From Pseudomonadota bacterium (GTDB lineage Bacteria; Desulfobacterota; Desulfobulbia; Desulfobulbales; JAGXFP01): DNA of 64,000 nt. The first letter of the stretch is position 1, and each line of letters begins with the position of its first letter. The notes beneath the pieces were generated by a model that did not search any database, was not told where the DNA came from, and saw only the letters and a program-made list of their open reading frames with translations. The position numbers were made by a program, and so were the translations under genes. The stretch spans positions 4,536 through 68,535 of the forward strand of contig JAHJIQ010000007.1 of the NCBI GenBank assembly GCA_018823285.1, written 5' to 3'. Shown piece by piece: positions 3,397-57,138 of the stretch.

Positions 3397-3540
3397 TAGG
3401 AGTCTTTCGCTCAGGGGTGATGATTCTTTACTCGGCATCATGTGAAAAACGGGTGTGTCGGTAAAGGTCCGGACGTCTTGCATTTTGAATCCCGAATCTA
3501 TAGAATTATTCTGCACCCTGGAATTTACATAAGGTTTTGC

Positions 3541-3735: not shown

Positions 3736-3780
3736 GAATTCAGATAACGGATCGCTGCACCCGCCCAAGGGATTAAGATT

Positions 3781-5588: not shown

Positions 5589-5719
5589 TTTAAAGTATCC
5601 CCGCCGGCTCTGATTTATTGCGGTGATCCCTTCCCCTTGATTTTTCCCCGCCATCCTTTTCCCCGGTAACACCGGTTTTTTTCTATACTTCCTTTCCCAT
5701 AGTTTCTATACCTATTCCC

Positions 5720-8312: not shown

Positions 8313-8486
8313 ACGTCACGCCATTTATTTCATATAGGAATTCTTCCTGAATAATCTGCGATTTCTCCTGCCTTTTTCTTGTTGAAAAAAGAAAACAAAC
8401 ATGATAGGAATTCTGCTCGGCGAATGAATCGTCATTCATAATTTCTGGCCTTGTTTCTGGGTCTGTTGTTTTACCGGAATTTTTTT

Positions 8487-25025: not shown

Positions 25026-25323
25026 AGCGGCCCTCCCGGAACGCCTGAAGGCTGTTCCAGAATTGAGATTGTTCATTTATTACTGGTCAGCAAGTGATCG
25101 TATATAATTTCCAAGAGTCAGTGTTACATGCAAAGGTGAATATAATATTCAAAAGAAAGGCTCGTTCTGTTTCTGCCTTGGATACTTGAATAGACATTTG
25201 GAAGCCTTAATAACATAATATGCATTATACAAATGCTCCGCTCAACTGACAGTGAACTTTTGCCAATTTTTCTGTGAACAAATCACTCTTTGTAAATATG
25301 GGTTTTCTGTAAACCATTTGCGG

Positions 25324-37030: not shown

Positions 37031-37094
37031 CTCGAAAATGGAGTTTATACCCTGAGGGTTGTTGCTGCGACAAACTGTTGCAACTGGGAGTTTG

Positions 37095-39554
37095 ATGAAG
37101 AAACATATCCTGAGTGTTGTGTTGTTTGTCGTGGCAGTGACAATCTTGTCCGGCTGTGCTGTTTTCGAGAAAGGGCCGGTGGTTCCTCCTCCCTCTCCAG
37201 CAGAGTTGGCAGAGTTGCAGGAGTTTGGTGAGACGCTGGACTATCAGCGAGATATCCAGACCATCTTTGACCGCCGCTGTGTCGGCTGCCATTCCTGCTA
37301 CAACTCCCCGTGCCAGCTCAAGATGACCTCCTATGAGGGGGTCTGCCGGGGAGCGACCAAGACCAGGGTCTATAATGGAACACGTCTTGAAGCCGTCGCC
37401 CCGACCAGGCTCTTTATTGACGAGACTACCACTGAAGGATGGCGAAAGCGTGATTTCGTCGATGTGACCGGTCACGAAAAGGGGCTTGGCCCTGATTCAT
37501 TCATGTATCAGCTGCTTGATCTTAAGCAGGGAAATCCTGAGGTCAAAGGAGAGTACGATTCCGAGGCCAAGGATCTGGTCTGCTCACAGTCTGATCGCGA
37601 ACTGAAAAAATTCATGCGGAAAAATCCCCACGCCGGGATGCCGTTTGGTTTCCCCGAGATCAGCAAGGATGAGCGGCGAACCCTGAAAGCCTGGCTGGCT
37701 GCAGGCGCCAAAGGGCCGAGTCCGGAAGCGGACAGGATTCTGAAGATCCCTGCCAATGGCGAGATGGGTGAAGCGGTCATCAACAGATGGGAGGATTTTC
37801 TTAATGACGATTCTCCCAAAACGGTGGTGACTGCCCGCTATATCTATGAGCATCTTTTTCTTGCCCATATCGGATTTGAAGAGATTCCAGGTGATTTTTT
37901 CCGTCTGGTGCGCTCGCGCACTCCCGCCCCGCAGCCGGTGGATGAGATCGATACCGAGAAACCGTATGACGATCCCGGCGGGACGTTCTTTTATCGCTTT
38001 CTCAAAGAGCATAGCACCATCGTCTTCAAGACCCACATCATCTATCGATTAAGCGACGCGCGAATGGCCCGTTATCGGGAGCTTTTTCTGGAACCGGACT
38101 GGCCGGGAGAAACCATTATCGATCCGGGCTACGATCCTGATGGGTCGGCCAATCCCTTCTGGACCTTCAGGCAGATTCCACCCCGCTCCCGTTACCGGTT
38201 TCTCCTTGATGACAGCCGGTATTTCATCATGACCTTCATTCGCGGCCCGGTCTGTAAAGGGCAGATTGCCCTGAATGTTATCAATGACCATTTCTGGGTG
38301 ATGTTCCTCGATCCGGAGGTTGATCTTGCGGTCAATGATTCTGAGTATCTGGAGCGGAACATTGCCAATCTGCGGATGCCCATTGAAGACCGTGGCAGAT
38401 CGATCCTGGGAGCATATCTTCCCTATGCGGAGGCACAGAAAAGATACGTGATCAACAGGGCGATTGCCTATCAGGAAGCTTATCCGGAGGGGCAGGTGCT
38501 TGGAAATATCTGGGACGGAGATCGTGCAGAGTCAGACCCGTTTCTGACCATTTACCGGCATTTTGACAGCGCCACGGTGATTGCAGGGCCGGTGGGTGGG
38601 TACCCCAGAAGCGGCTGGGTGATAGACTTCCCTTTGTTTGAGAGGCTCTATTATAATCTGGTGGCCGGGTTTAATGTCTTCGGCAATGTCAAAGAGCAGG
38701 CTGGGATCAGAATGTATATGGATCTGCAGCGACGGGAGGGAGAAATGCTGTTTCTTGATTTCCTGCCGGCTGAAGCTCGCGATCCGGTATTGCGGCTCTG
38801 GTATCCGACCATGCTTTCCTACTGGTTTGCCTCCGACGAGGTTGAGATGTTGGAGAATGGGATCGAGACCGGAGTCTATTACCCGGAAATCCGGGGAAAT
38901 CCGGTGGATTACAAGGATGATTTTTTTGACCAGGTCATAAGCAATCGACTGCACCCGGATATTGGCTATGGTTATGACGGGATCAATTTCCATGACGATG
39001 ATCTTGACCGAACACCGGCAGAAAAAATCTCCTCCGAGAAAGATCTTGATCTGGAGTTTCGAAAACTGTCCCACCGAAGCGGCGGTTTTGCCAAAGGAAT
39101 TCCGGCAAAAGGGGATGTCGTCTTTATTCGTTTTACACGGGAAGGGCAGGAGGACCTGGTGTATACCATGATCCTCAACCGCTATCATGAGGATGTCGAG
39201 TTCATCAAGGGAGAAAATTGGCGCCTGAACAAAGACAAGGATACGGTCCATTTCCGTAAAGGGTTTCTTGGTGCCTATCCCAATACTTTTCTGCAGGTGG
39301 AATTAACTGAAGCTCCGCAATTTTTCAGAATGCTCGACAGCATCGCCGAGAAGCCCGATTCATACTATAGATTCTTTCAAAAGTTCGGGGTGAACCGTTC
39401 TGACCTGAAGTTCTGGGAGATATCCGACTTTTTCAATGAACGGTTCAAAAAGGACGAGCCGGAAACAGCCGGAATTTTCGATCTGAACAGATACACCAAC
39501 GAAGTGAAGCCGCCAGGATTCTGGGGCCGCCTGTTGTTTCATCTCAGAGACTGA
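37095..39554 (+). CDS. cti: Fatty-acid cis/trans isomerase (Cti)-like periplasmic heme-c lipoprotein
   Basis: Lipobox ILSGC. A single N-terminal heme motif in the context IFDRRCVGCHSCYNSPCQLKMTSYEG, as I recall it for the Cti family. Size ~820 aa. Confidence 0.65.
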   Translation: MKKHILSVVLFVVAVTILSGCAVFEKGPVVPPPSPAELAELQEFGETLDYQRDIQTIFDRRCVGCHSCYNSPCQLKMTSYEGVCRGATKTRVYNGTRLEAVAPTRLFIDETTTEGWRKRDFVDVTGHEKGLGPDSFMYQLLDLKQGNPEVKGEYDSEAKDLVCSQSDRELKKFMRKNPHAGMPFGFPEISKDERRTLKAWLAAGAKGPSPEADRILKIPANGEMGEAVINRWEDFLNDDSPKTVVTARYIYEHLFLAHIGFEEIPGDFFRLVRSRTPAPQPVDEIDTEKPYDDPGGTFFYRFLKEHSTIVFKTHIIYRLSDARMARYRELFLEPDWPGETIIDPGYDPDGSANPFWTFRQIPPRSRYRFLLDDSRYFIMTFIRGPVCKGQIALNVINDHFWVMFLDPEVDLAVNDSEYLERNIANLRMPIEDRGRSILGAYLPYAEAQKRYVINRAIAYQEAYPEGQVLGNIWDGDRAESDPFLTIYRHFDSATVIAGPVGGYPRSGWVIDFPLFERLYYNLVAGFNVFGNVKEQAGIRMYMDLQRREGEMLFLDFLPAEARDPVLRLWYPTMLSYWFASDEVEMLENGIETGVYYPEIRGNPVDYKDDFFDQVISNRLHPDIGYGYDGINFHDDDLDRTPAEKISSEKDLDLEFRKLSHRSGGFAKGIPAKGDVVFIRFTREGQEDLVYTMILNRYHEDVEFIKGENWRLNKDKDTVHFRKGFLGAYPNTFLQVELTEAPQFFRMLDSIAEKPDSYYRFFQKFGVNRSDLKFWEISDFFNERFKKDEPETAGIFDLNRYTNEVKPPGFWGRLLFHLRD

Positions 39555-39871
39555 GATTCCGACGTATTCCTGTATTGTCTGCCGGGTCCCTGATAAGCCC
39601 CCTGGTTTTACGTTTTCCAGTGATATTGGAGGTTATAGGCCGCTGCGGTTGTCTGAAATGAAGTCATCTTGACTTTACTTCAATGTTTGTGGGAACATGG
39701 GTTTCAATGATGTGGTCCATAAATGGGATAACGGACAGTGGGTTGCTGAAAAAGTGAAACCGGGTTCCAGCTGCAGTGCCGCTTCCGTTGCCTGTCCCGA
39801 TAAGCTTAAGTTGAGCAGCTTGTCTGCTCATACGAAACTTATACCCGCAGGGTGTGAAAGGAGGGTTGGAT

Positions 39872-40081
39872 ATGAAACGTTATTTTATCGATTGCCGTGA
39901 TAATCCTGGCGAGGAGATTTGTACCGGGGCATTTTTTGCCAACAGCAAAGAAGAGCTTCTGGAGCTCGTGGTTCATCACCGGGTCAGAGTTCACAAGAAA
40001 AGAGATTCGCAGGACCTGCGGGCAAGCATCGTCAGGGATATCAAACAGGCTCCACCATTATTGAGGATGCACAGGTTGTAA
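39872..40081 (+). CDS. DUF1059-like small protein
   Basis: MKRYFIDCRD...EELLELVVHHRVRVHK matches the DUF1059 pattern. RBS gaaaggaggg. Confidence 0.55.
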   Translation: MKRYFIDCRDNPGEEICTGAFFANSKEELLELVVHHRVRVHKKRDSQDLRASIVRDIKQAPPLLRMHRL

Positions 40082-40125: not shown

Positions 40126-40848
40126 CTACCGGAAGACGTTGGGGCCAGGTGAAGGTGACCTTGTAGCGGGTTGCAGTCCAGCGGGATTCAGATGTCTGGC
40201 GGCTTTCGGGATAAAAAAAGATGCTGCAAAAAGAAATACTGCCAACAGATTCTGCCAGGAGAGCAATGTTTCCCATCGGCCGCTGAGCCACACCTCGGTT
40301 AATGCCACGAAAAAGAAAGTCAGGATGATGCCGCTCCCGATCTTGCCGAAGAACGTCCCCCAGAAAAATTGACTGAAGGTCACTCCGGTCAGTCCCATAC
40401 TGAAGTTGAGCGGGGTGAAAGGAAAGAAAATGAGGCGGAGATAGAGGGTGGTTGTAAAGCCGTTCTCGGTAATTTTGCCGTCGTACATTTTTAATCGATC
40501 ATCTGCCACTGAGGCTGCAAAATCTCTCCCCAGATAACGACCAATCCAGAAACTCATTGAGGCGCCGAGCATTGCGCCGGCAAAGTTGCAGATGATTCCT
40601 CCTGACAAGCCGAACAGCATCGCGCCCATGGCGGTAAAAAAACTCGCGGGCAGGAACATGGAGATGCCGAAGCCATAGATAAGAATAAAAATTATTGGCG
40701 AGGCAAAGCTGTTGGCGGCAACAAAATTCCGCAGCGCCTGCGGCTCGATATACTGCCCGACAGGGGTAAGCCGAAAAATGAGTAGGGAAGAGAGCAGAAA
40801 GAGAATCAGAAGTATTGCCTTGATCAGCGGGTAATTTTTATTTCGCAT
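40126..40848 (-). CDS. TVP38/TMEM64 (DedA-related, VTT domain) membrane protein
   Basis: 240 aa, polytopic, with the GRYLGRDF motif typical of the family. Starts 12 nt after the methyltransferase stop. Confidence 0.75.
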   Translation of the reverse strand: MRNKNYPLIKAILLILFLLSSLLIFRLTPVGQYIEPQALRNFVAANSFASPIIFILIYGFGISMFLPASFFTAMGAMLFGLSGGIICNFAGAMLGASMSFWIGRYLGRDFAASVADDRLKMYDGKITENGFTTTLYLRLIFFPFTPLNFSMGLTGVTFSQFFWGTFFGKIGSGIILTFFFVALTEVWLSGRWETLLSWQNLLAVFLFAASFFIPKAARHLNPAGLQPATRSPSPGPNVFR

Positions 40849-40860
40849 GATTTTGCCGAT

Positions 40861-41757
40861 CTATTGTTCCCTGTAACCTTTGAACAGAGCCCCGCCGGTA
40901 TACTCGGAAGTGGAAAAACCTGTTTCACCAAGAAACTCTGCATTCTGGAAACCTGCCTCCTGCATCATCTTGAGCTGGTCCCCGACCGGGACCGTGCCGC
41001 CGATTCATTGTGACCAGGCTTCAGGGCTTGCCGCCAGCGAGTCAGGCAACTCTTTTTTGAGAATAATATCGGCGAACTGCAGCCTTCCCCCCGGTTTAAG
41101 AACCCGCCGGATTTCCGTAAAGAGTTGTTTTTTCCGGGGAGAAAGATTGATGACCCCATTGGAGATGGCAACGTCAAAGGTCTGGTCAGGATATGGGATA
41201 TTATCTGTATCGACATGATGGAGTTCAAAGTTTCTGATGTTCGCGAGTTCCATATTTTTTCGGGCCCGATTGACCATCTCTTCAGTGAGATCAATACCAC
41301 AGACCCTGCCTTTTTCGCCAACCAGCCTGCCGGCAACAATCATATCAAACCCGCCGCCACAGCCGATATCGAGAACCTGACTGCCGGGTGGAATCGCATC
41401 AATTGAAAACGGGTTTCCCACGCTGCAGAAAGACGCAAGTAATTCCGCGGGGGAATTCTCCACAATGATTTGGTCATAGTTCAGTGCCAGCGCCCCATTT
41501 TTACCGGTGGGGTATTGGAATTTTCCTTCAGCAGAGACAGCCACGGCCGCATACTTGCTTCGGATGGCATCTCTGATGGTGTTGAAATTATCCGAGGCTG
41601 ATATTTCACACGAGCTCGGGAAGTGTTGTTTCTTCAAACGACTGAAGAAACTCAGAAGGGTTGTGAGGAAGCCCGGGCTTTCTTGCCGACGACCGCCGGC
41701 ATTTCCCTTCGAGGGTCAACAACGGGGATTTGAAATTGTATTCTCATTATCAGTCAT
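40861..41757 (-). CDS. ArsM-like SAM-dependent methyltransferase SELENOPROTEIN (in-frame UGA at 41005-41007, plus a probable second UGA at 41716-41718)
   Basis: The tracked ORF (41005..41637) stops at a TGA, but the frame continues for 47 more codons (IGGTVPVGDQLKMMQEAGFQNAEFLGETGF...) to TAG 40861. The UGA falls at WSQ-U-IGG, where ArsM-type enzymes have W..C(I/V)(A/G)G. Upstream, the only strong RBS (AAGGAGG, 7 nt) serves ATG 41757. That ATG is in frame through ...NPRC-UGA-PSKG... into the tracked ORF. Motif I is VLDIGCGGGFD. Confidence 0.75.
40977..40993 (-). promoter_or_regulatory. SECIS-like hairpin for the C-terminal UGA of the methyltransferase
   Basis: GGUCCC-GGUCG-GGGACC begins 12 nt 3' of the UGA. 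The GGUC-type apical loop matches classical bacterial SECIS elements. Confidence 0.6.
41684..41701 (-). promoter_or_regulatory. SECIS-like hairpin for the N-terminal UGA of the methyltransferase
   Basis: UGCCGGC-GGUC-GUCGGCA (7-bp stem including one G.U pair, GGUC tetraloop) begins 15 nt 3' of the UGA. Confidence 0.5.
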
Positions 41758-41774
41758 ATCTATCCTCCTTCAGC

Positions 41775-42065
41775 TCATTTTACAAACAGAGAGTATGCGA
41801 TCATGCCCAGACTGAAGACCGTTACGCCATGTAGAAGCGGCATGCTCCAGGGGCTGGCGTGTTCCCGAGCTTTGTAGGCCCGGTAATAGGCAAAACCAAG
41901 CAAGACAACAGTGGCAACGAGAAAGAGCCAGCGGTATCTGGCAAACCACATGGACAGGGTAAAACTTCCCAGGCCGAAACTGGCCAGGAGCAGAGGGAGT
42001 TGTCAGCAGAAGGCGTAGGCGAGTGCAGAGGTGACTGCGCCTCCGCCGACGAGTTTATTGTCCAT
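41775..42065 (-). CDS. MerT-like small membrane transporter SELENOPROTEIN (Cys-Sec pair in TM1; UGA at 42003-42005)
   Basis: Absent from the ORF track. ATG 42065 with RBS aggaga gives MDNKLVGGGAVTSALAYAFC-U-QLPLLLASFGLGSF...(96 codons) ending at TGA 41775. This resembles MerT TM1 (...ILASACCLGPLVLIALG...), with the second Cys of the CC pair replaced by UGA. Confidence 0.65.
41969..41988 (-). promoter_or_regulatory. SECIS-like hairpin for the MerT-like gene
   Basis: CCUGGCC-AGUUUC-GGCCUGG begins 15 nt 3' of the UGA (one U.U mismatch). Confidence 0.45.
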
Positions 42066-42085
42066 TTTTATCTCCTTTCCAGTGC

Positions 42086-42550
42086 TTATTTCAGAATTTC
42101 TTCAATACCGGTTACAAGTTCGGAATAATGAATGCTATGTGAGATTTTCTTTTCGATCCGTCCATCCCTTGAAATAAAATAAGTCTCCGGAATCCCTTTG
42201 GCGCCGAGGGTTTCGGCGATTCCATCTTCCGGGCCGACCGGATAGGTCAAGTGAAACTCTTTCGCGAATTTCCGGATATCCTTGTCTTTGCTCAGTGTAA
42301 AAGCGCCGAGAAAAAGAACGCCCCTGTCCTTGTAAACCTGGTATGCCCGCTGTAACTCAGGGGCTTCGGCTTTACATTTTTTTCACCAGTGCGAGCCGAT
42401 GTTTATCACCAGGGGCGTTCCTTTGAGGTCGCTCAGGATGTACGTGGTTCCTTCCAGATCGGTGAATGAAAAGTTCAATGCAGTGCTTGCATATAAAGGG
42501 CTGCCGACCAGAAGGGTCACAAGTAAATAAAATGGGACAATGTGTTTCAC
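42086..42550 (-). CDS. TlpA/ResA-like periplasmic thiol:disulfide oxidoreductase SELENOPROTEIN (W-U-K-K-C active site; UGA at 42383-42385)
   Basis: Absent from the ORF track. GTG 42550 overlaps the stop of the upstream kinase (GTGA). The protein has a signal peptide (KHIVPFYLLVTLLVGSPLYA), then FSFTDLEGTTYILSDLKGTPLVINIGSHW-U-KKCKAEAPELQRAY...GIPETYFISRDGRI. This is a full redoxin fold with Sec at the first position of the CxxC motif. 154 codons to TAA 42086. Confidence 0.8.
42345..42364 (-). promoter_or_regulatory. SECIS-like hairpin for the TlpA-like gene
   Basis: GCCCCUG-AGUUA-CAG(C)GGGC begins 19 nt 3' of the UGA (7 bp with one bulged C). Confidence 0.5.
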
Positions 42551-43602
42551 GATGAAGTGCCTCCTGCGGGTTGATTATGTATTGCCGGACCAATGGGAAG
42601 AGAGATCGTGAAAGTCGAACCTTGTCCGGGTTGACTGTCAACACTGACCGATCCATTATGCTCCCTGGCGGTACGTTCCACGATAGGCAGGCCAAGACCG
42701 GGGCCGTTTGTTTTTGTTGTGTAAAAAGGTTTGAAGATGTTTTTCTGTTCTTCCTGGGAGATACCGGGGCCATGATCCGTAACTGAAATTCTTACCGTTT
42801 TCCCGTCGGTGGACGTGCCCACAAGAATTTCTGTATTTGCCGCAGAGGATTCCACGCTGTTCTCAAGGAGCTTGGTCAGCGCTTCACGCATTCTTGCGGT
42901 GTCGCAAGGGGTCAGTGGCAGGTGTTCCGCCAGCCTGAGCAGCACCGGTTTTTTCAGGTTGTCCACGGAATTTGAAAATTCATCAACCGCTGTACGGGTC
43001 ACGCTGTTGATGTCGCATGGTTCGAGTGCCAGCGGGGCCGGATTGGAAAAACTTAAGAATATCGAGGTCAGGGTGTTCAGCTTCTTGACCTCTTCTTCAA
43101 TAACGTTCAGGAATTCGGTGACGAGCTCCCCGTGGAAATTTTTTTTCAGATACGAGGCGGCGATGCCGATTGAATGCAGGGGGTTCCTTGTTTCATGGGC
43201 CACGGCGGCGATCATGTTGCCGAGTTCAGCGGTGCGAGCGTCTTTTGCCTGCTGCCGATCGTTTTTTTCCTGTTCCGAGAGATTGAATTTCAGGTCCTTG
43301 ACCATCTGGTTGAAGACCTCGACAAATTCACTGATTTCGTCCCCGCACGACTCCTTGTAGACCACACATTTGCGGCAATCTCCCAGCTTCTGGGCGAATT
43401 CCCCCTGAACAGCTCCGTGGCAGCTGGTTCCGGCGATGGACCAGCATCGGAGTCTGCCGTAAGCCGGGCAATCTTTTTTTTCACAGCCGAGTCGTTCCCA
43501 GCATTTGACGATCTGCGGATTTTCCTCTTCCACATCATAATTGCCGGACTGCAGGGCGATCATCTTTTCCTTCAAGGACTGGAGTTTTTTGATCTTGCTC
43601 AT
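42547..43602 (-). CDS. Soluble sensor histidine kinase with an N-terminal Cys-rich two-CW-type domain
   Basis: N-terminus KCWERLGCEKKDCPAYGRLRCWSIAGTSCHG...CRKCVVYKESC (two CW dipeptides, 9 Cys), a coiled coil, then HisKA (AAVAHETRNPL) and HATPase_c (GPGLGLPIV). No TM segment. Confidence 0.8.
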   Translation of the reverse strand: MSKIKKLQSLKEKMIALQSGNYDVEEENPQIVKCWERLGCEKKDCPAYGRLRCWSIAGTSCHGAVQGEFAQKLGDCRKCVVYKESCGDEISEFVEVFNQMVKDLKFNLSEQEKNDRQQAKDARTAELGNMIAAVAHETRNPLHSIGIAASYLKKNFHGELVTEFLNVIEEEVKKLNTLTSIFLSFSNPAPLALEPCDINSVTRTAVDEFSNSVDNLKKPVLLRLAEHLPLTPCDTARMREALTKLLENSVESSAANTEILVGTSTDGKTVRISVTDHGPGISQEEQKNIFKPFYTTKTNGPGLGLPIVERTAREHNGSVSVDSQPGQGSTFTISLPIGPAIHNQPAGGTSS

Positions 43603-43633
43603 AATGACAAATCCATGCTGAAGTGCATCTGAT

Positions 43634-44968
43634 TCAGGGTTGAAGCAGGCCGAGATTTTTCATCTTGGTGCGTAGCTGCTTTCTGGAAATGCCCAGGATG
43701 ACGGCCGCGCTGGACTGGTTCCATGCCGCCTTGTCGAGGGCTTTTCTGATGATCTTTTTTTCCATTTCCGGCAGGTTCAGCTCGTTTAGTTCAAGGCACT
43801 CTTCCTCGCCGGTGGCCCTGATCTTACAGGGCAGGCACTCGATATTGATTGAATCGTGAGGGCAGAGGATGACTGCCCGCTCCATAACGTTTTCCAGTTC
43901 CCGGACGTTGCCTTGCCAGTCATATTGTTTAAGGATATCAAATACTTCCCGGTCTATCCCGTGTATTTTTTTCTTGTTCTTGCGGCAGAAGTGGTCGAGG
44001 TAATAATTGGCCAGCAGCGAGATGTCGTCCTTTCTTTCCCGCAGGGGGGGCACATTGATGGTGATTACATTCAAACGGTAATAAAGATCGGTGCGGAAAT
44101 CGCCGGAGTCGACATCTTTTTCAATGTCCCGGTTGGTGGCGGAGATGACCCTGACATCGACCATGATACTTTCTTTGCCACCCACCCGGCGGATCTCTCT
44201 TTCCTGGAGAAAGCGGAGCAGTTTTTTTTCAAGCGCGTAATCAAGATCGCCGATTTCGTCCAGGAAAACTGTGCCGCCATGGGCCATTTCGATCAGGCCG
44301 ATCTTGCGTTCTCCGGCCCCGGAAAAAGCCCCTTTCTCGTAGCCGAACAACTCGCTTTCCATCAGCTCGGAGGGGATGGTCGTGCAATCGATGGGGATAA
44401 ACGGCTTGTCGGCGCGAAGAGATGAATAGTGGACAGCCCTGGCCACCAGTTCCTTGCCGGTTCCCGATTCTCCGAGAATCAGAATGTTGGCATCGGTCTT
44501 GGCAACCCTCCGGACCAGGGAGAAGACCTCCTGCATCGGTTTGGTTTTGCCGATGATATTCAGGAACTGATGCCTGCCGGGTGTTTCGTCATCCTCGTCG
44601 CGTTCACGCGGGAAAAGCACATCATTGACCACGCTTTCCATGACGTTCAGCTTTACCGGCTTGGTAAGATAGGTGTATGCACCCTTGCGCATGGCGTTCA
44701 CGGCAAGTTCAATGGTGCCGAACGCGGTGAGCAGAATGAAGGGCGTCTCCGGGGTCATGGTCTTGACCTTTTCCAGGAGCTCTTCGCCGTTCATTCCCGC
44801 CATCTTGTAGTCGGAGATAACAAGGTCGTAGTGAGTGCTTTTGCACAGCTCAAGTGCCTCTTCACCGGAGCGGGCGGTTTCCACAACCTTGTCTTTGCCC
44901 GAGAGCGCGGCGGACAGAACCTTCAGGGAATTGATCTCGTCGTCCACCAGCAGAATTTTATATGACAT
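43634..44968 (-). CDS. NtrC-family sigma-54-dependent response regulator (REC, AAA+, Fis-type HTH)
   Basis: REC domain (LLVDDE...D in DLVISDYKMAGMNG), AAA+ Walker A GESGTGKE, sigma-54 contact loop GAFSGA, and a C-terminal HTH (AAVILGISRKQLRTKMK). Confidence 0.9.
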   Translation of the reverse strand: MSYKILLVDDEINSLKVLSAALSGKDKVVETARSGEEALELCKSTHYDLVISDYKMAGMNGEELLEKVKTMTPETPFILLTAFGTIELAVNAMRKGAYTYLTKPVKLNVMESVVNDVLFPRERDEDDETPGRHQFLNIIGKTKPMQEVFSLVRRVAKTDANILILGESGTGKELVARAVHYSSLRADKPFIPIDCTTIPSELMESELFGYEKGAFSGAGERKIGLIEMAHGGTVFLDEIGDLDYALEKKLLRFLQEREIRRVGGKESIMVDVRVISATNRDIEKDVDSGDFRTDLYYRLNVITINVPPLRERKDDISLLANYYLDHFCRKNKKKIHGIDREVFDILKQYDWQGNVRELENVMERAVILCPHDSINIECLPCKIRATGEEECLELNELNLPEMEKKIIRKALDKAAWNQSSAAVILGISRKQLRTKMKNLGLLQP

Positions 44969-44974
44969 CAGCGG

Positions 44975-46720
44975 TTATCCTCCTTGCAGGATGAGCGTGA
45001 ATTTGCTGCCTTGCCCTTCGGTGCTTTCCAGGACAAGATCGCCCCGGTGCTCCCTGGCGATCTTTTTGGAAATGGCCAGGCCCAGGCCGGTGCCCCTGGT
45101 CTTGGTGGTATAAAAAGGATTGAAGACATGTCTGATTTTGTCCGGGGCGATGCCCGATCCGTCATCTTCTACAACAAGATGGACTTTTCCCTGGACGGCA
45201 AGTGTCGAAATAGAGACCTTGCCATCCCGGTCGATGGCGTCAAAGGCATTGATCAGCAGATTGATCAGCACCTGCTTGATCTGGTTCTGGTCACAATGAA
45301 CGGGTGGAAGCGAGGAGTCGATATCGGAAACGAGAGTGATGCCATGGCTTCTGGCCTCTTCACCCAGCAGGGAAAGGGTGGTGCGGACAATCTCGCCCAG
45401 GTCGTTCGGGGCCAGCTCCTGGACCATGGGTTTGGCAAAACCGAGCAATGTCCCGGTCAGCTTGTTGATGCGTGAAACCTCATCGCTAATGACCCCGGTG
45501 AACTCTTCGATAAGGCTGCCGCTGTAGTTTTTCCGGATATAACCTGCCGCCCCGCCGATGGCGTTTAGCGGGTTTTTGATCTCATGGGCGAGGGTTGCCG
45601 CGAGCTCCCCGGTTGCGGCGAGCCGGCACAATCTTTCCTGCTCGTCGACGGCGTGGCCGAGTTTCATGACCATTTCATTGAAGGCGTTCGACAACTCGCC
45701 AATTTCATCGGTCCCGGAAACCGGGATGTTTCTGTTGAAACCTTCGTCGACCAGCCGGTCGACGGAATTTTTGAGAAGGAGGATCGGTCGGACAAGTCTG
45801 ATGATCAGCCCCAGGCCGAAAACAAGGGTGGCCGCAAAAGAGATCAGCATCAGGATGAAAACCAGCAGCCTCCGGCCTTCAAGGTCGAGGGGGCTTATGT
45901 TCTCGTAAAAAATTACCGTGCCGAAGAGAATCAGGGGGACGGCGGTCAGGAGACTGAAGGCGGTCAGGGCCCGGAAGAGAATGCTTGAGCCGAGAGTGGT
46001 GAAGGTCGTCCGGTTGATGCTGAAGAGGAGAATCATAAAGCCTACCGGCCGGAACAGATGCCCGTGCAGCCAGACGGCAGAGCCTATGGGGGCCGGGAAG
46101 AAAAGGAAGGTTGCAGAAATGCAGAGCAGGAGAAAACCGATTGCCGACCAGAGAATTTCTATTTTGCGGGTCCGGTAAAATGCGGCAAAGAGCAGCATGC
46201 AGACCAGCCCGCTTAAATAGGCGACACTGATCCAGACCAGCGGTCGGAACTGGCCGAAGATCGGGAATTTCTCGTAAATATCGGGAACCAGAAAGCCAAG
46301 CAGGGGCAGATAACAGAGCAGAAGGATCTTTTTCCGACCGGGATTTTCAGAAGAGATGGCCACGATAAAGGTCAGGAGGCCGAAACAATATCCCAGCAGG
46401 GTCTGGTACAGGAGGTTCAGGTTCAGGTGGTTCAGGTGGATAACCGCATGGAAGAAGCTGCTGATCCCTAAAATCAGGAAGGAGGCGGAGAAAAGCATCG
46501 CCCGGCTCTTGTGAACATGATCAAGGCCGGGGGTTCGGTGATGCATCAGGATAAATCTGGTGGCGATGATCAGACAGATTGAAGCGATAAGAAATTCCTC
46601 GCCCGTGTGATAATCGAGCAGGAATCCTTTATCGGTATAGTAGGAGGGCCAGTTCATCAAGAATTTGCTTTTCTCCTGATATTTTTTGCATGGACGGGAA
46701 ACCAAAAATGCACAATCCAT
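44975..46720 (-). CDS. Membrane sensor histidine kinase (multi-TM sensor, HAMP, HisKA, HATPase_c)
   Basis: About 8 TM helices, then HAMP-like, ATLAHEIKNPL (H-box) and GTGLGLAISKKIA (G2 box). An alternative start at 46657 (MNWPSYY) is possible. Confidence 0.85.
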   Translation of the reverse strand: MDCAFLVSRPCKKYQEKSKFLMNWPSYYTDKGFLLDYHTGEEFLIASICLIIATRFILMHHRTPGLDHVHKSRAMLFSASFLILGISSFFHAVIHLNHLNLNLLYQTLLGYCFGLLTFIVAISSENPGRKKILLLCYLPLLGFLVPDIYEKFPIFGQFRPLVWISVAYLSGLVCMLLFAAFYRTRKIEILWSAIGFLLLCISATFLFFPAPIGSAVWLHGHLFRPVGFMILLFSINRTTFTTLGSSILFRALTAFSLLTAVPLILFGTVIFYENISPLDLEGRRLLVFILMLISFAATLVFGLGLIIRLVRPILLLKNSVDRLVDEGFNRNIPVSGTDEIGELSNAFNEMVMKLGHAVDEQERLCRLAATGELAATLAHEIKNPLNAIGGAAGYIRKNYSGSLIEEFTGVISDEVSRINKLTGTLLGFAKPMVQELAPNDLGEIVRTTLSLLGEEARSHGITLVSDIDSSLPPVHCDQNQIKQVLINLLINAFDAIDRDGKVSISTLAVQGKVHLVVEDDGSGIAPDKIRHVFNPFYTTKTRGTGLGLAISKKIAREHRGDLVLESTEGQGSKFTLILQGG

Positions 46721-46981
46721 ACCACAATGTATGGAACAGTATTACAGCCCGGTTGTCAATTTTCAGATCGGTTGATGCTTCTTCTCCGAGCCATGACGTG
46801 TGGCATGTTGATGCCAGCATTCAGCGCTCAGGACACTGTTTCTGCCGACCTCGTCTGGGCCTTTTCGCACATCCAGGATTGTCTTGCTGTGCCGAATGGC
46901 ACAATACCGCCCTGGCAGAGATGTGGTGAGAGGCATGTTCTCTCCGCATGTGGAGCCGGTTGCGGGTCAGAAGATTCCTCT

Positions 46982-46997
46982 TGGCATTATCTTTGCA
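46982..46997 (+). promoter_or_regulatory. Sigma-54 (-24/-12) promoter upstream of the tusA-like/dsrE-like genes
   Basis: TGGCAT-TATCT-TTGCA has the exact GG-N10-GC spacing of the TGGCAC-N5-TTGCW consensus. It lies 84 nt upstream of ATG 47081. Confidence 0.7.
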
Positions 46998-47080: not shown

Positions 47081-47317
47081 ATGGGTGAGGCGAAAAAAAT
47101 TGACAGGGTGCTCGATCTCTCCGGAATGCTTGGTCCCAATCCGAGCCTGATCACCAGAAAGAGGCTTGGTGACCTGGTCCGGGGTGAAACTCTGGAGGTG
47201 ATATGCAGTGAGCGTTCCGTCCGGAAGGCGATTCTGGCTCTCTGCCGAAACAGTCTTTATGAAGTTATTGAGACCAGGGAGGAAAACGGGCTCTCAAGTT
47301 TTATAATCAGGAAATAA
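47081..47317 (+). CDS. TusA/SirA-fold protein lacking the conserved CP cysteine
   Basis: 78 aa. RVLDLSGMLGPNPSLITRKRL...GETLEVI...SSFIIRK matches the TusA pattern LDxxGLxCPxP, but Cys is replaced by Gly (codon GGT, not TGA). Confidence 0.65.
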   Translation: MGEAKKIDRVLDLSGMLGPNPSLITRKRLGDLVRGETLEVICSERSVRKAILALCRNSLYEVIETREENGLSSFIIRK

Positions 47318-47376
47318 TATGTGCCATCCTCCTTCATCAGGCCGGCCTGGTTTGGCGGCAGCAGGAAGGCCCTCGA

Positions 47377-47415
47377 CATGCCCGGCGGAAAGTCTTGGCC
47401 GCCGGGCATGTTTTC
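47377..47415 (+). terminator. Strong hairpin with a T-tract between the tusA-like and dsrE-like genes (terminator/attenuator candidate)
   Basis: Perfect 12-bp stem CATGCCCGGCGG / CCGCCGGGCATG, 10-nt loop, followed by TTTTCCC. Confidence 0.55.
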
Positions 47416-47466
47416 CCGGTTGGTGAAAACGGCTGCATGTATGGCGGATGGATTATGGAGGCGGTG

Positions 47467-47739
47467 ATGACCAAAAAAATTGCGGTGCTGGTCAGAGACA
47501 GGCAGGGTGAAGCCCTGAGAATGGCGGTCGGGATCATCCTGATGGATGACGAGATTGATGTCTATGTGCTTGACCGGAAGATTGATGAATCGGGAAACAA
47601 TGGGCTCTATCTGGAGACCATCAAAGACATGGAGATGAATGCGTATTCCAATGTGAAGGACAACGTGGGGCTTGCGTATCTTACCGATGAGGAGATCGGG
47701 ATCAGGCTCCCGGAGTATGACCACGTACTTGCCTATTGA
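47467..47739 (+). CDS. DsrE/DsrF/DsrH-fold-like small protein (no Cys)
   Basis: MTKKIAVLVRDRQGEALRMAVGIILMDDEIDVYVLD is a Rossmann-like beta-alpha start typical of the DsrE/F/H family. RBS ggagg. Confidence 0.45.
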   Translation: MTKKIAVLVRDRQGEALRMAVGIILMDDEIDVYVLDRKIDESGNNGLYLETIKDMEMNAYSNVKDNVGLAYLTDEEIGIRLPEYDHVLAY

Positions 47740-47796
47740 TTACAAACGGGGTGCCGGTTACGCGACTGGCCGATCATGAAAAAAGGAGACAGGGGT

Positions 47797-47964
47797 ATGA
47801 CCATTTTGTACCTGCTGAAGGGAAAACCGGATCCTACCTTGCAGAAAATTCTGACTGCACAGAAAAAACTCCACAAGATCGAAACCATAGATCTTGAGCA
47901 AAACAGGGAGTATGGCAGGATCGTCGCGGCAATTGCCGCCGCCGATCGGGTCGTTTCTTGGTAG
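47797..47964 (+). CDS. Small protein (55 aa), possibly DsrH/TusB-like
   Basis: MTILYLLKGKPD... with RBS aaggaga, between two DsrE-family-like genes. Confidence 0.35.
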   Translation: MTILYLLKGKPDPTLQKILTAQKKLHKIETIDLEQNREYGRIVAAIAAADRVVSW

Positions 47965-47999
47965 CCTGCAGCTGAGAATAATTATTTAGGGAGCAGGGT

Positions 48000-48302
48000 A
48001 TGAAACTCGGTATACTGGTGAATACGGACAAGTGCTTTCAGGCTCTTTCGGGAATCACCCGGGCCGCGAGCGACAAGGGGCACGAAGTGACCATCTTTGC
48101 CATGGACGAAGGGACAAGGCTTCTGGAAGATCCGGAATGCCTCTCTCTCTCGGGACTGGCCAGGGTGTCGATGAGCTACTGCGATCACAGCGCCATCGAG
48201 CTGGGTGTCAATAAAGAGGGGGTTCCCGAAGCGATTGAACGCAGCAGTCAGTACAATAACGCCGCAATGAACCATAATGCGGACAAGGTGATTGTTCTGT
48301 GA
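48000..48302 (+). CDS. DsrE/TusD-family-like sulfur-relay protein
   Basis: MKLGILVNTDK...VTIFAMDEGTRLL...VSMSYCDHSAIELG...NADKVIVL matches the family pattern, including the conserved Cys region. Confidence 0.55.
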   Translation: MKLGILVNTDKCFQALSGITRAASDKGHEVTIFAMDEGTRLLEDPECLSLSGLARVSMSYCDHSAIELGVNKEGVPEAIERSSQYNNAAMNHNADKVIVL

Positions 48303-50192: not shown

Positions 50193-50208
50193 TGGCATGA
50201 ACATTGCT
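50193..50208 (+). promoter_or_regulatory. Sigma-54 (-24/-12) promoter upstream of the yeeE/yedE-like gene
   Basis: TGGCAT-GAACA-TTGCT with exact consensus spacing, 90 nt upstream of ATG 50298. Confidence 0.7.
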
Positions 50209-50297: not shown

Positions 50298-51731
50298 ATG
50301 GAAATTATTATCCCAAGAAGGAACGTTGTCTGGGCCTACGTTATTGTCGGCTTCTTCAGCCTGATAAGCGTGGTGACCTTCGCAATCCACGAATATTACA
50401 TCTACCTCTCGGCCTACCTCTGGTTCGGATTTATCTACGGCATGTGCCTGCAGTACGGCAGGTTCTGCTTTGCCTCGGCCTTCAGGGACCTTTTTGCGGT
50501 GGGCGTTCCGCGAATGGTCGTCGGAATCATGATCGCGACCCTTCTCTTTGCCATCACCTCGGCCTTTGTTTCGGCCACCGGCTGGAGCACCTTCCATGCG
50601 GCCCCGGTCAGTTTTCACGCCACCATTGCCGGCCTGATTTTCGGGGTCGGGATGGTCTTCGCCGGCGGTTGCGCTTCCGGGTCGCTGTACAAGACCGGGG
50701 AGGGCAACGGGGTCTCGCTGCTGGTGATCCTCTCGATCAGTGTTACCCAGTCTCTCTTTGTCGACTGGGGCGGGATCCTCAACAGACTGGTCCCCCAGGC
50801 CTGGCATGAATCGGCCCTTAAAAAGGGGCTCCCCGATTCGATCAATGTCGGTGATGGGTTTATCGACCAGTATCTCGCCGGGTATGTCTGGGACCAGCCG
50901 GTCATGACCTATGCCCAGAGCCTCGGCATGAAAGACGACACCCTTTCCGGAGCGCTGCTGGGCAATGCCCTGGCCGGAGTTTTCGTTCCCGCCCTGATCA
51001 TCCTCTTGATCGTCTATTTTTTCTGGGTCAAGAAAAACTATGTCCGGAAGCTGCAGAAGGAGAAAGGCGGGAATATTACTCTCAAAGATCATCTGCACGG
51101 CTTCTGGGGCATGATCATGGCCTCCAAAAGGACCTCGATTGCAGGGCTGCTGCTGGGGATCGCCTGCGGTCTGCAGATGTTTGTCATCGAAGGCATGCGG
51201 ATGAAATTCGGGGTCAAAAATGCCGGCACCCTGCTGGTGAGGCTTGGCCATGACTACGGGATTTCGGCCAAAGGGACCGTGTTTGACCCCGGCTACTGGT
51301 ATGTGACCACCCAGGAAGCACAGTGGGTCGGGTGGATGCTGCAGAAGCTCGGGATGGAGAATATGGACAATATCTATTTTGGCTGGGTGAACGGCATTCC
51401 GAGCCCGGCCATCAACCCCGCCGACTGGATGTCGGTTGCCCTGATCGGCGGTGCTGCGGTCATGGCGCTCCTGCACGGAGAATTCAAGTTCAAGGCTCCG
51501 ACTTTAGAGCTTGCGGTCTGGGCCATTATCGGCGGCGCCCTGATGGGGATCGGTTCCAGGCTGGCCCTGGGGTGTAATGTCGGGGCGTTTTTTGTCCGGA
51601 CCGCCATGGGCGATATGTCCGGCTGGCTGTTCGGCCTCGGCATGATCGGCGGGGCCTATATCGGGGTCAAGTTTTTTAACTGGTACACGGAGCGGAAGAT
51701 GGCCGGCGAGATGGCCGGTTTCGATTTATAG
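50298..51731 (+). CDS. YeeE/YedE-family membrane transporter (thiosulfate/sulfur- or selenium-compound uptake family)
   Basis: Two halves with conserved Cys loops (FAGGCASGSLYK, LALGCNVGAFF). 477 aa. RBS aggagg. Confidence 0.8.
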   Translation: MEIIIPRRNVVWAYVIVGFFSLISVVTFAIHEYYIYLSAYLWFGFIYGMCLQYGRFCFASAFRDLFAVGVPRMVVGIMIATLLFAITSAFVSATGWSTFHAAPVSFHATIAGLIFGVGMVFAGGCASGSLYKTGEGNGVSLLVILSISVTQSLFVDWGGILNRLVPQAWHESALKKGLPDSINVGDGFIDQYLAGYVWDQPVMTYAQSLGMKDDTLSGALLGNALAGVFVPALIILLIVYFFWVKKNYVRKLQKEKGGNITLKDHLHGFWGMIMASKRTSIAGLLLGIACGLQMFVIEGMRMKFGVKNAGTLLVRLGHDYGISAKGTVFDPGYWYVTTQEAQWVGWMLQKLGMENMDNIYFGWVNGIPSPAINPADWMSVALIGGAAVMALLHGEFKFKAPTLELAVWAIIGGALMGIGSRLALGCNVGAFFVRTAMGDMSGWLFGLGMIGGAYIGVKFFNWYTERKMAGEMAGFDL

Positions 51732-54590: not shown

Positions 54591-56105
54591 ATGAAATGCT
54601 TGCTGATCATTCCTGCCTGGCAACCGGAAGAAATTTTTCCGACCAGAACCGCCGCATCCCAGATCAATTACTGGCAGCCTCTGGGGACGCTCTATGTTGC
54701 TTCTGCTTTGCAGCAGGCAGGCCATGAGGTGGCGTTTCTGAACGGGGCCTTTCTGACCCGTGCGGAAATCCTCAATGCGGTTGGTCTGGCTAGGCCGGAG
54801 TTTGTCGGACTCTACTCTACCGCTTTCGGCTGGCCGAAAGCGATGCTGGCAGCGCAGGAGATCAGGGAGATTCTGCCCGAGGTGTTTATCGCAGTGGGCG
54901 GACCGTATCCGGTTGCGGTCCGGGAAAAATGTCTGGAGGATTGCCCGGATGTCGATGCGGTGGTCACCGGTGAAGGTGAAGTGACGGTGGTCGAAATGGT
55001 CAACCGTTTTGCGGCGGGCAGGGATCTGGCCGAGGTCGCCGGTCTCGTCTGGCGGCTGAATGATTCAATAATCTGCAACGCTCCCCGGCCGCTCTGCACC
55101 AATCTTGACACTCTGGCTTTTCCCGCCCGGGAACTGCTTGGTGAAGCGGGCAGATATATTCCGCCACCCGCAACTTACAAGCGTAAACCGGTGGCGGTGG
55201 TCATGACTTCCAGGGGCTGTGATCACCATTGTATCTACTGCTTCCAGATGGACAGAAGGCGGAAGAGCGGGATCAGATATCGCAGTATCGACAACGTGAT
55301 GGCGGAGATCGAGCTGTGTCTCTCCCAGGGCTATCGGGAGATCAAGTTCATCGATGAAACCCTGGCCGGCGATTACGACCGGGCGATGCAACTGACCACC
55401 GAGATTCATAAACGGGGGCTTGATTTCAGCTGGTTTGCCTCGGCAAGGGTCGATCAGGTTGATAAACCCCTGCTCCGGGCCTTTAAAAAGGCGGGCTGCT
55501 GGGCGATCCTGCTGGGGGCGGAGAGCGGGGTCCAGAAGAACCTTGATACGATCAGAAAGGGGATCACCCTGGAGCAGATCCGCGGGGCGGTTGCGGCGGC
55601 CAGGGAGGCCGGGCTCAAGGTCTTTACCCCGTTTCTGTTCGGTCTGCCCGGCGAGACATTCGCCGAAGGGCTCAGGACCATCAAGTTCGCCTGTGATCTC
55701 AATCCCGATGTGGCGAATTTCCATTGCCTGACACCATTTCCGGGCACCGAACTCCACGACCGTCTTGAGAAATACGGAACGGTTTCCGGGAACCTCGGCG
55801 ATTATACCTATCAGGGCGCTGCGTTTACCCCGTTTACTATGGGCAGAGGCGATATCACCAGATTGCGGCGGATCGCCTTCAAATCTTTCTATTCCCGGCC
55901 GCGCTTTCTCCTCCGCCGTTTTATCGGGATCAGAAGCGTGAACGACCTGCGGGCCGCTTTCACCGGAATCCGGAGTCTGTTCTGGATCTGGCTCTCTGAG
56001 GGAGTGTTTCAGCGAAGAGGGGTTGCCGGGGAAAAGAAACCGTCATCGGCAACTATCACAACCGGAGATATTCCTTCAGCAGGGCGGGGTATTGTCCAGG
56101 GTTGA
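54591..56105 (+). CDS. B12-binding-domain radical SAM enzyme
   Basis: N-terminal cobalamin-binding-like domain, then a radical SAM CxxxCxxC motif (SRGCDHHCIYCF). Confidence 0.8.
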   Translation: MKCLLIIPAWQPEEIFPTRTAASQINYWQPLGTLYVASALQQAGHEVAFLNGAFLTRAEILNAVGLARPEFVGLYSTAFGWPKAMLAAQEIREILPEVFIAVGGPYPVAVREKCLEDCPDVDAVVTGEGEVTVVEMVNRFAAGRDLAEVAGLVWRLNDSIICNAPRPLCTNLDTLAFPARELLGEAGRYIPPPATYKRKPVAVVMTSRGCDHHCIYCFQMDRRRKSGIRYRSIDNVMAEIELCLSQGYREIKFIDETLAGDYDRAMQLTTEIHKRGLDFSWFASARVDQVDKPLLRAFKKAGCWAILLGAESGVQKNLDTIRKGITLEQIRGAVAAAREAGLKVFTPFLFGLPGETFAEGLRTIKFACDLNPDVANFHCLTPFPGTELHDRLEKYGTVSGNLGDYTYQGAAFTPFTMGRGDITRLRRIAFKSFYSRPRFLLRRFIGIRSVNDLRAAFTGIRSLFWIWLSEGVFQRRGVAGEKKPSSATITTGDIPSAGRGIVQG

Positions 56106-57132: not shown

Positions 57133-57138
57133 GTTCGT

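Follow-up and report, generated by a model that had tools for sequence, protein, structure and literature searches.

In mer systems, mercury is handed on from the CxxC motif of MerP to the Cys pair in the first transmembrane segment (TM1) of MerT, then to a Cys pair in a loop and finally to NmerA/MerA, a reductase. Selenocysteine (Sec) forms of several proteins with related chemistry have been described. For the arsenite methyltransferase ArsM, a Sec form has been known since 2007 (Fomenko et al. 2007); MerT, MerP and redoxins with Sec followed in 2008 (Zhang & Gladyshev 2008), and MerT selenoproteins with a Cys-Sec (CU) pair were noted in 2022-23 (Haft & Gwadz 2023). MbdU, the Tso operon and ArsM fusions that are double or triple selenoproteins were described in 2025 (Haft & Tolstoy 2025, mSystems 10:e0141724). 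Selenoproteins and multi-selenoprotein operons are not new in kind. In the present study, a 64-kb window of Desulfobulbales DNA (contig JAHJIQ010000007.1; "the window" denotes the whole stretch that was analysed) was found to contain a minus-strand row of seven genes, three consecutive members of which carry four in-frame TGA codons that are almost certainly genuine Sec codons (Table 1). They encode a TlpA/ResA-like redoxin, a MerT-like membrane protein and an ArsM-like methyltransferase dependent on S-adenosylmethionine (SAM), with read-through products of 154, 96 and 298 amino acids (aa), respectively.

Orthologous and related loci for comparison were drawn from genome and metagenome collections. 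Among the orthologous loci recovered, the TGA was kept at the redoxin position in 11 of 11, at the MerT-like position in all 20, at the active site of the ArsM-like enzyme in 8 of 8 and in its N-terminal tail in 17 of 17, and a Cys codon (TGC or TGT) was found at none of the four positions. Downstream of the TGAs, the ratio of nonsynonymous to synonymous substitution rates (dN/dS) ranged from 0.06 to 0.25 (0.11-0.17 in the redoxin), with dS between 0.4 and saturation; the downstream parts are therefore translated in frame. Judged by these sequence comparisons, the recurrence and conservation of the four TGAs is far beyond chance. In distant homologs, three of the four positions (redoxin U56, MerT-like U21 and ArsM-like U251) are occupied by Cys, while for tail position U14 no Cys-bearing homolog was recovered, only Sec-containing ones. 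The initial annotation had proposed three selenoprotein genes with four UGA codons, and TGA conservation together with purifying selection downstream bears this out; homologs do align across the UGAs with Cys or Sec, and coding conservation continues beyond them. Its further statement that each UGA replaces a functional Cys holds for three sites and not for U14.

That the TGAs are errors, pseudogenes, real stops giving short peptides, or Trp or Gly codons of an alternative code is hardly credible, and the present data already contradict it. The deposited annotation does take them as stops and the window carries no tRNA-Sec, yet each of the four TGAs is found again in 8 to 20 independent loci of separate assemblies, with strong purifying selection 3' of it. 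Certain metagenome gene callers gave W for the homologous TGAs, but three of the four align with Cys, never with Trp or Gly, in distant homologs, and TGA is the commonest ordinary stop of the window, ending 18 of 32 long open reading frames (ORFs), including those of the soluble histidine kinase (HK2) and of the MerT-like gene itself. An alternative genetic code (4 or 25) was ruled out on account of this stop usage and the Cys alignment at three sites, and sequencing error or pseudogene formation on account of TGA conservation and dN/dS.

Full-length-looking database homologs show W at the U positions. In one case (L005) the DNA has TGA, so that the gene caller must have used genetic code 4. 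Metagenome proteins P0002-P0012, P0130 and P0160-P0162 likewise come from short contigs with TGA read as Trp and show a conserved W at the Sec positions. This artefact of public protein collections may mask selenoproteins, yet it may also expose them.

A hairpin of the bSECIS type, with G in its apical loop, begins 11-18 nt 3' of each internal TGA, with the loops AGUUA, AGUUUC, GGUC and GGUCG, and none follows the terminal TGA of the MerT-like gene. The GGUC- or AGUU-type loops predicted earlier were thus present at all four sites. In the MerT-like hairpin, 1 of 25 alignment columns varied across nine loci compared to 11 of 32 outside it (p = 0.007), and 0 of 8 third codon positions compared to 6 of 11 (p = 0.018). 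The U251 hairpin received modest support (97.9% paired, two pairs with compensatory changes, 11/500 shuffles), and the U14 hairpin of the tail weak support (98% of cells paired, a U:A to C:G exchange, 62/500 shuffles). The redoxin hairpin was kept in four of six distinct orthologs, and one base pair had changed in a compensatory manner from C:G to U:A; comparative support was absent (78.6% paired, 161/500 shuffles). A search of the whole window with Rfam at gathering thresholds detected no family of the Sec insertion sequence (SECIS).

The ArsM-like protein contains a VLDIGCGGG motif and matches the chains of CmArsM at E = 2e-28. An AAGGAGG Shine-Dalgarno sequence lies 6 nt 5' of the ATG at 41757, which places the start upstream of the first TGA. 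This tail TGA was kept in the ArsM-like genes of L003, L004, L005, L007 and L008, and also in the tails of genes for DUF5714 proteins. Alignment with CmArsM (PDB 4FR0/4FS8; Cys 44, 72, 174 and 224) revealed the same fold and SAM motifs, with Sec251 at the position of C224 and Cys111 near that of C72 (two residues off), whereas Gly201 occupies the position of C174 and C44 is unmatched. The N-terminal C13-U14 pair might substitute in the empty C44 column. The 120 nearest database homologs comprise 99 sequences that terminate exactly at the Sec codon and 19 with W there, Cys being absent from all of them at this position, and 119 of the 120 have Gly at the C174 position; a large clade therefore always joins Sec with Gly174. 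Surveys of anoxic sediments with arsM as the marker of arsenic methylation will accordingly miss or misread this clade, since 99 of these 120 homologs are cut at the Sec codon and 19 carry Trp.

The best NCBIfam matches of the enzyme were ArsM selenoprotein families, all far under their cut-offs (291 vs 510, 273 vs 460 and 273 vs 575), and the general ArsM model NF008823 gave 196.9 against a cut-off of 263 when U was replaced by C. A published rule expects at least three of the four conserved cysteines in ArsM (PMC5552862). Only two of four are at or near the aligned positions, so the protein is not a clear ArsM by this rule. The ArsM identity assumed in the initial annotation is consequently doubtful: with Sec at one As-binding Cys position and Gly at another throughout the clade, arsenite as the substrate is not established, and this pairing would point to a different substrate or binding geometry. 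The Sec-ArsM families NF041537 (ArsM/AhpD), NF047649 (methyltransferase/UXPK-star) and NF041536 (ArsM/DUF2284) resemble the window enzyme in the SAM core, a U-x-x-G Sec at C224 and a second Sec on a terminal extension. They differ (Haft & Tolstoy 2025) in that their second Sec lies on a C-terminal UXPK tail or an AhpD or DUF2284 domain, whereas that of the window enzyme lies on an N-terminal C-U tail common to an unrelated DUF5714 enzyme.

The MerT-like protein was scored at 25.9 bits by Pfam MerT (cut-off 32.9) and at 43.5 bits full length by NCBIfam merT_RC607 (cut-off 130). Its C20-U21 pair aligns with the TM1 CC pair of distant MerT/MerTP homologs, U being the second Cys, and CU was seen in 20 of 20 loci. 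The family appears rare, as a word-indexed search gave nine truncated matches and an exhaustive HMMER search with the 75 residues after the UGA gave four with E < 1e-10. In the redoxin, U56 aligns with the first Cys of the SWCxPC motif of distant TlpA/CcmG homologs; the N-terminus looks like a signal peptide by eye only, and the scores against the NCBIfam ResA, TlpA and DsbE models were all under cut-off. Catalogued CU-MerT and UxxC redoxin/TlpA selenoproteins share these motif types and superfamilies (Zhang & Gladyshev 2008; Haft & Gwadz 2023; AEM 2026 review), although neither the redoxin nor the MerT-like protein of the window reaches the cut-off of any curated NCBIfam selenoprotein family. 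The assignments to TlpA/ResA-like redoxins, MerT-like proteins, ArsM-like methyltransferases and VTT/DedA proteins hold at the superfamily level in Pfam and NCBIfam.

The N-terminal tail was found to be common to the ArsM-like and DUF5714 proteins. It comprises about 12 residues, C-U-[PAT]-x(4-5)-G-G-R-[RQ], followed by G-[FL]-[LF] and a hydrophobic stretch. Wherever the sequence downstream of a CU-MerT gene could be read, that gene was directly followed by a C-U-tailed gene. In the window, L003 and L004 this neighbour encodes an ArsM-like enzyme, and in no fewer than seven distinct metagenomic loci a DUF5714/MbdU-like protein. The DUF5714 genes of L022 (8234-8875), L023 (2578-3456) and their relatives have the same C-U tail and GGUC hairpin, and their annotated starts fall after the TGA. 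Isolated N-terminal tails gave no matches in an NCBIfam scan, being too short. The codons of the tail G-G-R (GGC GGU CGC) are themselves the top of the GGUC SECIS-like hairpin; the tail and its SECIS would therefore move together as one cassette.

A wider module with a fixed order could be recognised in at least ten distinct metagenomic or metagenome-assembled genome (MAG) loci: ArsR-type regulator, small membrane protein, U-redoxin, M-V-E-H-U-I-K-E-C protein, CU-MerT and DUF5714 protein. All its NCBIfam matches were under cut-off, the regulator resembling TsoR (86 bits, cut-off 115), the U-I-K-E-C protein TsoA (Table 1) and the DUF5714 protein MbdU (381 bits, cut-off 600). The U-I-K/D-E-C protein is a further putative selenoprotein with a winged-helix-like C-terminal half; it is split into two ORFs in annotations and does not occur in the window. 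With the ArsM-like protein as query, the genome collection yielded 16 loci, five of them close, and the full cluster was present in only two other MAGs (L003 and L004). L004 reads membrane histidine kinase (HK1), regulator, HK2, ArsR, small membrane protein, redoxin, TsoA-like, MerT, ArsM-like and VTT, the window lacks the ArsR, small membrane protein and TsoA-like genes, and L003 additionally lacks the redoxin. From this deletion series the constant core is CU-MerT, tailed enzyme and VTT, and the window is a reduced, methyltransferase-ending form of a recurring module that resembles the Tso/MbdU neighbourhoods.

Tso/MbdU (Haft & Tolstoy 2025) and SAO (Haft & Gwadz 2023) are likewise multi-selenoprotein systems of anaerobes; they too have a regulator of the ArsR type and are suspected of acting on metals or organometals. 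No Tso family (TsoA, TsoB or TsoC) was among the reported NCBIfam matches of the window proteins. The initial annotation knew of no pathway in which all three steps use Sec. This stands only in part, given that multi-selenoprotein operons (SAO, Tso) are known and that relatives of the module carry TsoR-, TsoA- and MbdU-like genes; the pairing of CU-MerT with a tailed effector was not found in the available texts. The available texts and curated models also gave no instance of the N-terminal C-U tail on an ArsM-like enzyme or its sharing with DUF5714, of the strict adjacency of CU-MerT and tailed effector, of the invariant Gly174/Sec224 pairing, or of a placement beside a YTD-like gene cluster driven from sigma-54 promoters, although Haft & Tolstoy (2025) may cover part of this.

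On the basis of these motifs and their adjacency, we give about an even chance to the reading that a thiophilic substrate is relayed along the three selenoproteins by selenol/thiol ligand exchange. The exported redoxin (UxxC) would capture or reduce the substrate in the periplasm, and the Cys-Sec pair in TM1 of the MerT-like protein would carry it across the membrane. The flexible N-terminal Cys-Sec tail of the cytoplasmic enzyme would then take it over, with the hydrophobic stretch after the tail (GFLTTLLSFF) expected to dock the enzyme at the membrane. Delivery by the tail to the active-site Sec251 and Cys111 would be followed by methylation with SAM. Passage of either product or substrate through the membrane may be the task of the VTT/DedA protein; selenite resistance as well as metal extrusion has been associated with DedA proteins (PMC8679861). 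The redoxin step looks accessory because the L003 cluster lacks this gene. MerP is likewise dispensable in mer systems, a parallel to L003, which keeps the MerT-like, ArsM-like and VTT genes. The relay would share the logic of the mer chain, namely a periplasmic dithiol(selenol) protein, a small three-TM carrier whose TM1 holds a vicinal pair, and a flexible Cys-pair arm, and would differ from it in having no MerP fold, no MerA and no loop Cys pair, in placing Sec at every hand-off site and in ending in a methyltransferase or a DUF5714 protein instead of a reductase. A relay had been put forward in the initial annotation; the common C-U tail directly after CU-MerT adds to it, while the topology, direction of transfer, methylation chemistry and substrate are what we infer. 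The constant succession of Cys-Sec carrier and Cys-Sec tail provides a model, open to testing, in which substrate is channelled by way of selenols as it is by thiols in MerP/MerT/MerA, but to another chemical outcome.

Several observations weigh against this interpretation. The loop KAREHASPWSMP of the MerT-like protein has no Cys, while distant CC homologs do carry a cytoplasmic Cys pair there; the protein is thus without the pair that canonical MerT uses for hand-off. Taken alone, the hairpins did not exceed shuffled sequence in strength (z = -2.2 to +0.1), and the G-G-R motif of the tail may be conserved for the RNA hairpin rather than for protein function. No tRNA-Sec was detected in the 64-kb window by Rfam at gathering thresholds or by ARAGORN; one tRNA-Arg was the only tRNA found. 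A crude, noisy scan of TGA-interrupted ORFs brought up nothing recognisable as a further selenoprotein gene in the window and hence does not attest Sec use independently. A CU-MerT neighbour is missing from double-Sec ArsM-like genes in Nitrospirota. On a Nitrospirae contig (L008), a double-Sec ArsM-like gene is accompanied by a TsoR-like regulator, a TsoA-like gene, VTT, rhodanese and a canonical four-Cys ArsM (5170-6222, +), which favours arsenic. The MerB/SaoL-like lyase gene next to the double-Sec ArsM-like gene of a Nitrospirota MAG (L007) favours organometal chemistry. The YTD-like neighbourhood occurs in only three closely related Desulfobulbales loci and so counts as one evolutionary event.

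In the L007 MAG (2599-4631 and 8169-8936), the double-Sec ArsM-like gene lies between integrase/IS91-type transposase genes and the lyase gene, an arrangement which suggests that it can move on a mobile element.

The proteins could instead serve a conventional operon for As or Sb methylation and resistance, with the Sec enzyme acting on As(III) or methylarsenite (MAs(III)) and the redoxin and MerT-like protein only aiding uptake or thiol redox. We regard this as unlikely, although it has a number of points in its favour. The nearest solved structures are ArsM and the top NCBIfam matches are ArsM selenoprotein families, but the As(III) ligand C174 of CmArsM is Gly in nearly all of the nearest homologs, two of the four cysteines are present (C72 only approximately) where at least three are expected, and NF008823 stays under its cut-off. 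Sec in place of C224 was already reported by Fomenko et al. (2007). Regulators of the ArsR family stand at the head of related modules, yet arsC, acr3, arsB and arsP were not found among the annotated neighbours. Import of As(OH)3 does not require a thiol-based carrier. The L008 locus, which combines a canonical ArsM with an ArsR-type regulator, can be turned either way, in that the coexistence of this ArsM with the Sec enzyme suggests that the two methyltransferases are non-redundant.

It is somewhat less probable still, though to be taken seriously, that the MerT-like protein moves reducing power in the manner of CcdA/DsbD, passing electrons from the cytoplasmic Cys-Sec tail to the periplasmic UxxC redoxin and on to a periplasmic target. 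Redoxins of the TlpA/ResA/CcmG type normally need a membrane thiol-disulfide transporter, and distant Cys homologs of the redoxin are annotated as CcmG/DsbE/TlpA; the membrane protein at hand, however, is MerT-like and not CcdA/DsbD-like. The Tso system includes a DsbD-fusion-like selenoprotein, TsoB. L003 nevertheless has the MerT-like, ArsM-like and VTT genes without any redoxin to receive the electrons, and such a scheme leaves no role for the SAM methyltransferase or the DUF5714 metal-binding domain that bears the tail. The handling of mercury or organomercury, from a periplasmic binder through MerT to a cytoplasmic detoxifying enzyme, is improbable. It would account for the MerT resemblance with CU at the position of the Hg-binding CC pair and for the MerB/SaoL-like lyase adjoining the ArsM-like gene in L007, and CU motifs have been tied to HgcA and the SAO organometallic system (Haft & Gwadz). 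The MerT score nonetheless lies under both cut-offs with the cytoplasmic Cys pair missing, and merA, merP and merR were all absent among the annotated neighbours. Electrophilic Hg(II) is also a chemically unlikely methyl acceptor, one that a SAM methyltransferase cannot readily methylate.

Returning to the relay, its cargo can be narrowed by the methyl donor. Since the methyl group of SAM is electrophilic, its acceptor has to be nucleophilic, either a metalloid or a chalcogen; Hg(II) is thereby disfavoured relative to As(III), Sb(III), Se, Te or S. By our rough estimate, a chalcogen (Se/Te or sulfane sulfur) is the leading candidate at just short of an even chance, As(III)/Sb(III) is little more than half as probable, mercury or an organometal is improbable, and the rest falls to other substrates. 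Across independent contexts, most neighbours are related to sulfur or selenium: L008 has a rhodanese, L022 has PhsA-like and TauE genes, L036 has NifS-like and SQR-like ("N-terminal to SelD"-type) genes, and the window has TusA/DsrE/YedE. A bolder version can be offered only tentatively, in which every site of the hand-off chain pairs Sec with Cys and the parts are exchangeable: the portable SECIS-bearing tail would plug different cytoplasmic proteins, either a Gly174/Sec ArsM-like methyltransferase or a metal-binding protein of the DUF5714/MbdU-like type, onto CU-MerT, and the cargo would be a chalcogen tied to the YTD genes rather than As or Hg. If this were true, many environmental "ArsM" genes would not be arsenite methyltransferases.

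The YTD cluster, composed of a yedE-related gene, tusA, a dsrE-related gene and two conserved hypothetical proteins, has been proposed as a marker of sulfur disproportionation (PMC8780430). The plus-strand genes divergent from the seven-gene row match this composition and sit behind sigma-54 promoters, with the difference that a PMT_2 glycosyltransferase is inserted in the window; the order of the genes at 47081..48302 (+) is the same in L003. Any tie to the selenoprotein genes would be one of position. The placement beside a disproportionation marker cluster in Desulfobulbales could link sulfur metabolism with methylation or volatilisation of Se, Te or As. The window TusA-like protein reads L-G-P-N-P where the L003 and L004 orthologs have the catalytic L-C-P-N-P (TGC to GGC), which could reflect inactivation of this copy, variation between strains or a fault in the assembly.

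Only two one-mismatch sigma-54 matches were found in the 64 kb, both on the plus strand and both facing these genes. The palindrome TGTGCCGAATGGCACA, about 80 nt upstream of the first site, is invariant in three orthologous intergenic regions. No minus-strand sigma-54 site with two or fewer mismatches was found upstream of the HK1 or redoxin gene, and no sigma-54 promoter for the selenoprotein genes inside HK2. In a sigma-70 scan, promoter-like matches were fewer than shuffles predict, with nothing convincing upstream of the redoxin gene. With such sites lacking in front of HK1 and of the redoxin gene, the most likely targets of the activator are the divergent genes of sulfur trafficking (TusA/DsrE/YedE), driven from the sigma-54 promoters. 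The selenoprotein genes appear simply to be co-transcribed with, and translationally coupled to, HK2. Control of the selenoprotein genes by the sigma-54 activator, as implied in the initial annotation, is not supported, since the good sites and the palindrome face the opposite-strand genes.

The row runs from 46720 to 40126, and the predicted gene order and junctions (a GTGA overlap and gaps of 20, 17 and 12 nt) could be confirmed from the coordinates, the full series being 6, 31, -4, 20, 17 and 12 nt. The GTGA overlap of -4 nt joins the HK2 stop to the redoxin start, and each of the three selenoprotein genes has a strong Shine-Dalgarno sequence ahead of its start. HK1 has an alternative start at 46660, the NCBI version being 561 aa long, and its orthologs are 82% identical in L003 and 75% in L004; the window regulators are 82-90% identical to their counterparts in one Desulfobulbales MAG. 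For the NtrC-type regulator, the AtoC/NtrC/ZraR-like NCBIfam matches did not reach cut-off. A VTT gene also lies 3' of the ArsM-like gene in L003, L004 and L008, and a terminator scan placed a terminator-like hairpin at 40020-40008, 3' of the VTT/DedA gene. The annotation used for comparison was GenBank record JAHJDD010000024.1 of GCA_018812685.1, a 199-kb MAG contig labelled "Proteobacteria bacterium" which the window matches. Two of the selenoprotein genes had been thought to be missed entirely by ORF prediction; this was not the case, as the deposited annotation does hold fragments of the three, of 55, 58 and 179 aa only.

Table 1. Coordinates and characteristics of the features of the selenoprotein gene row and its surroundings (window positions unless a locus is named).
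Feature	Position	Strand	Remarks
HK1, membrane histidine kinase	44975..46720	-	Pfam: multi-TM N-terminal sensor, HAMP, HisKA, HATPase_c
NtrC-type response regulator	43634..44968	-	Pfam Sigma54_activat 232 bits, Response_reg, HTH_8 (receiver, sigma-54 AAA+ activator, Fis-type helix-turn-helix)
HK2, soluble histidine kinase	42547..43602	-	N-terminal Cys-rich two-CW domain; HisKA, HATPase_c; NF045718 two_CW_domain 35.5 bits (cut-off 35)
TlpA/ResA-like redoxin selenoprotein, 154 aa	42086..42550	-	Pfam AhpC-TSA 60.7 bits, Redoxin 46.8 bits
Redoxin Sec codon, residue 56	42383..42385	-	In-frame TGA; H-W-U-K-K-C
Redoxin hairpin	42345..42364	-	GCCCCUG-AGUUA-CAGCGGGC; starts 18 nt after UGA
MerT-like three-TM membrane selenoprotein, 96 aa	41775..42065	-	C20-U21 in TM1; own stop TGA
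MerT-like Sec codon, residue 21	42003..42005	-	In-frame TGA; F-C-U-Q-L
MerT-like hairpin	41964..41991	-	Loop AGUUUC; starts 11 nt after UGA
ArsM-like SAM methyltransferase, double selenoprotein, 298 aa	40861..41757	-	Pfam Methyltransf_31 109 bits, Methyltransf_25/11
Tail Sec codon, residue 14 (C13-U14)	41716..41718	-	In-frame TGA; R-C-U-P-S-K
Tail hairpin	41684..41701	-	UGCCGGC-GGUC-GUCGGCA; overlaps codons of conserved tail G-G-R
Active-site Sec codon, residue 251	41005..41007	-	W-S-Q-U-I-G-G; TGA in 8/8 loci
U251 hairpin	40977..40993	-	GGUCCC-GGUCG-GGGACC; starts 11 nt after UGA
VTT/DedA (TVP38-type) membrane protein, last gene	40126..40848	-	Pfam VTT_dom PF09335 71.4 bits (cut-off 33.9)
Palindrome TGTGCCGAATGGCACA (TGTGCC-N4-GGCACA)	46888..46903	+	Candidate enhancer site for NtrC-type regulator; unique in window
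Sigma-54 promoter-like site TGGCATTATCTTTGCA	46982..46997	+	84 nt 5' of TusA-like start; conserved upstream of tusA in L003, L004
TusA-like	47081-47317	+	Pfam TusA 42.8 bits
Two small conserved hypothetical proteins	47467-47739, 47797-47964	+	Divergent cluster members
DsrE-like	48000-48302	+	Pfam DsrE 21.5 bits
Second sigma-54 promoter-like site TGGCATGAACATTGCT	50193..50208	+	Upstream of YedE/YeeE-like gene
YedE/YeeE-family membrane protein	50298..51731	+	Pfam Sulf_transp 132.7 bits; NCBIfam YedE/FdhT 131 and TsuA 103 bits, both under cut-off
M-V-E-H-U-I-K/D-E-C protein	L004 6848-7380; L022 7396-7932; L024, L028, L033, L034, L037; L008 about 2150-2654		TsoA 89 bits (cut-off 170)

Elsewhere in the window, a CTI fatty-acid cis/trans isomerase gene (37059-39554, +; 731 bits) and a small DUF1059 gene (39854-40081, +) lie just downstream of the seven-gene row with no apparent link to it. 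At 56056-58161 (-), glycosyltransferase-like and radical-SAM-like ORFs occur in the same frame with a TGA plus two codons between them; these are probably two ordinary genes and not a case of recoding. Finally, a 1048-aa ORF with internal repeats was noted at 21930-25076 (-), together with repeated antisense ORF fragments at 22630-23832.

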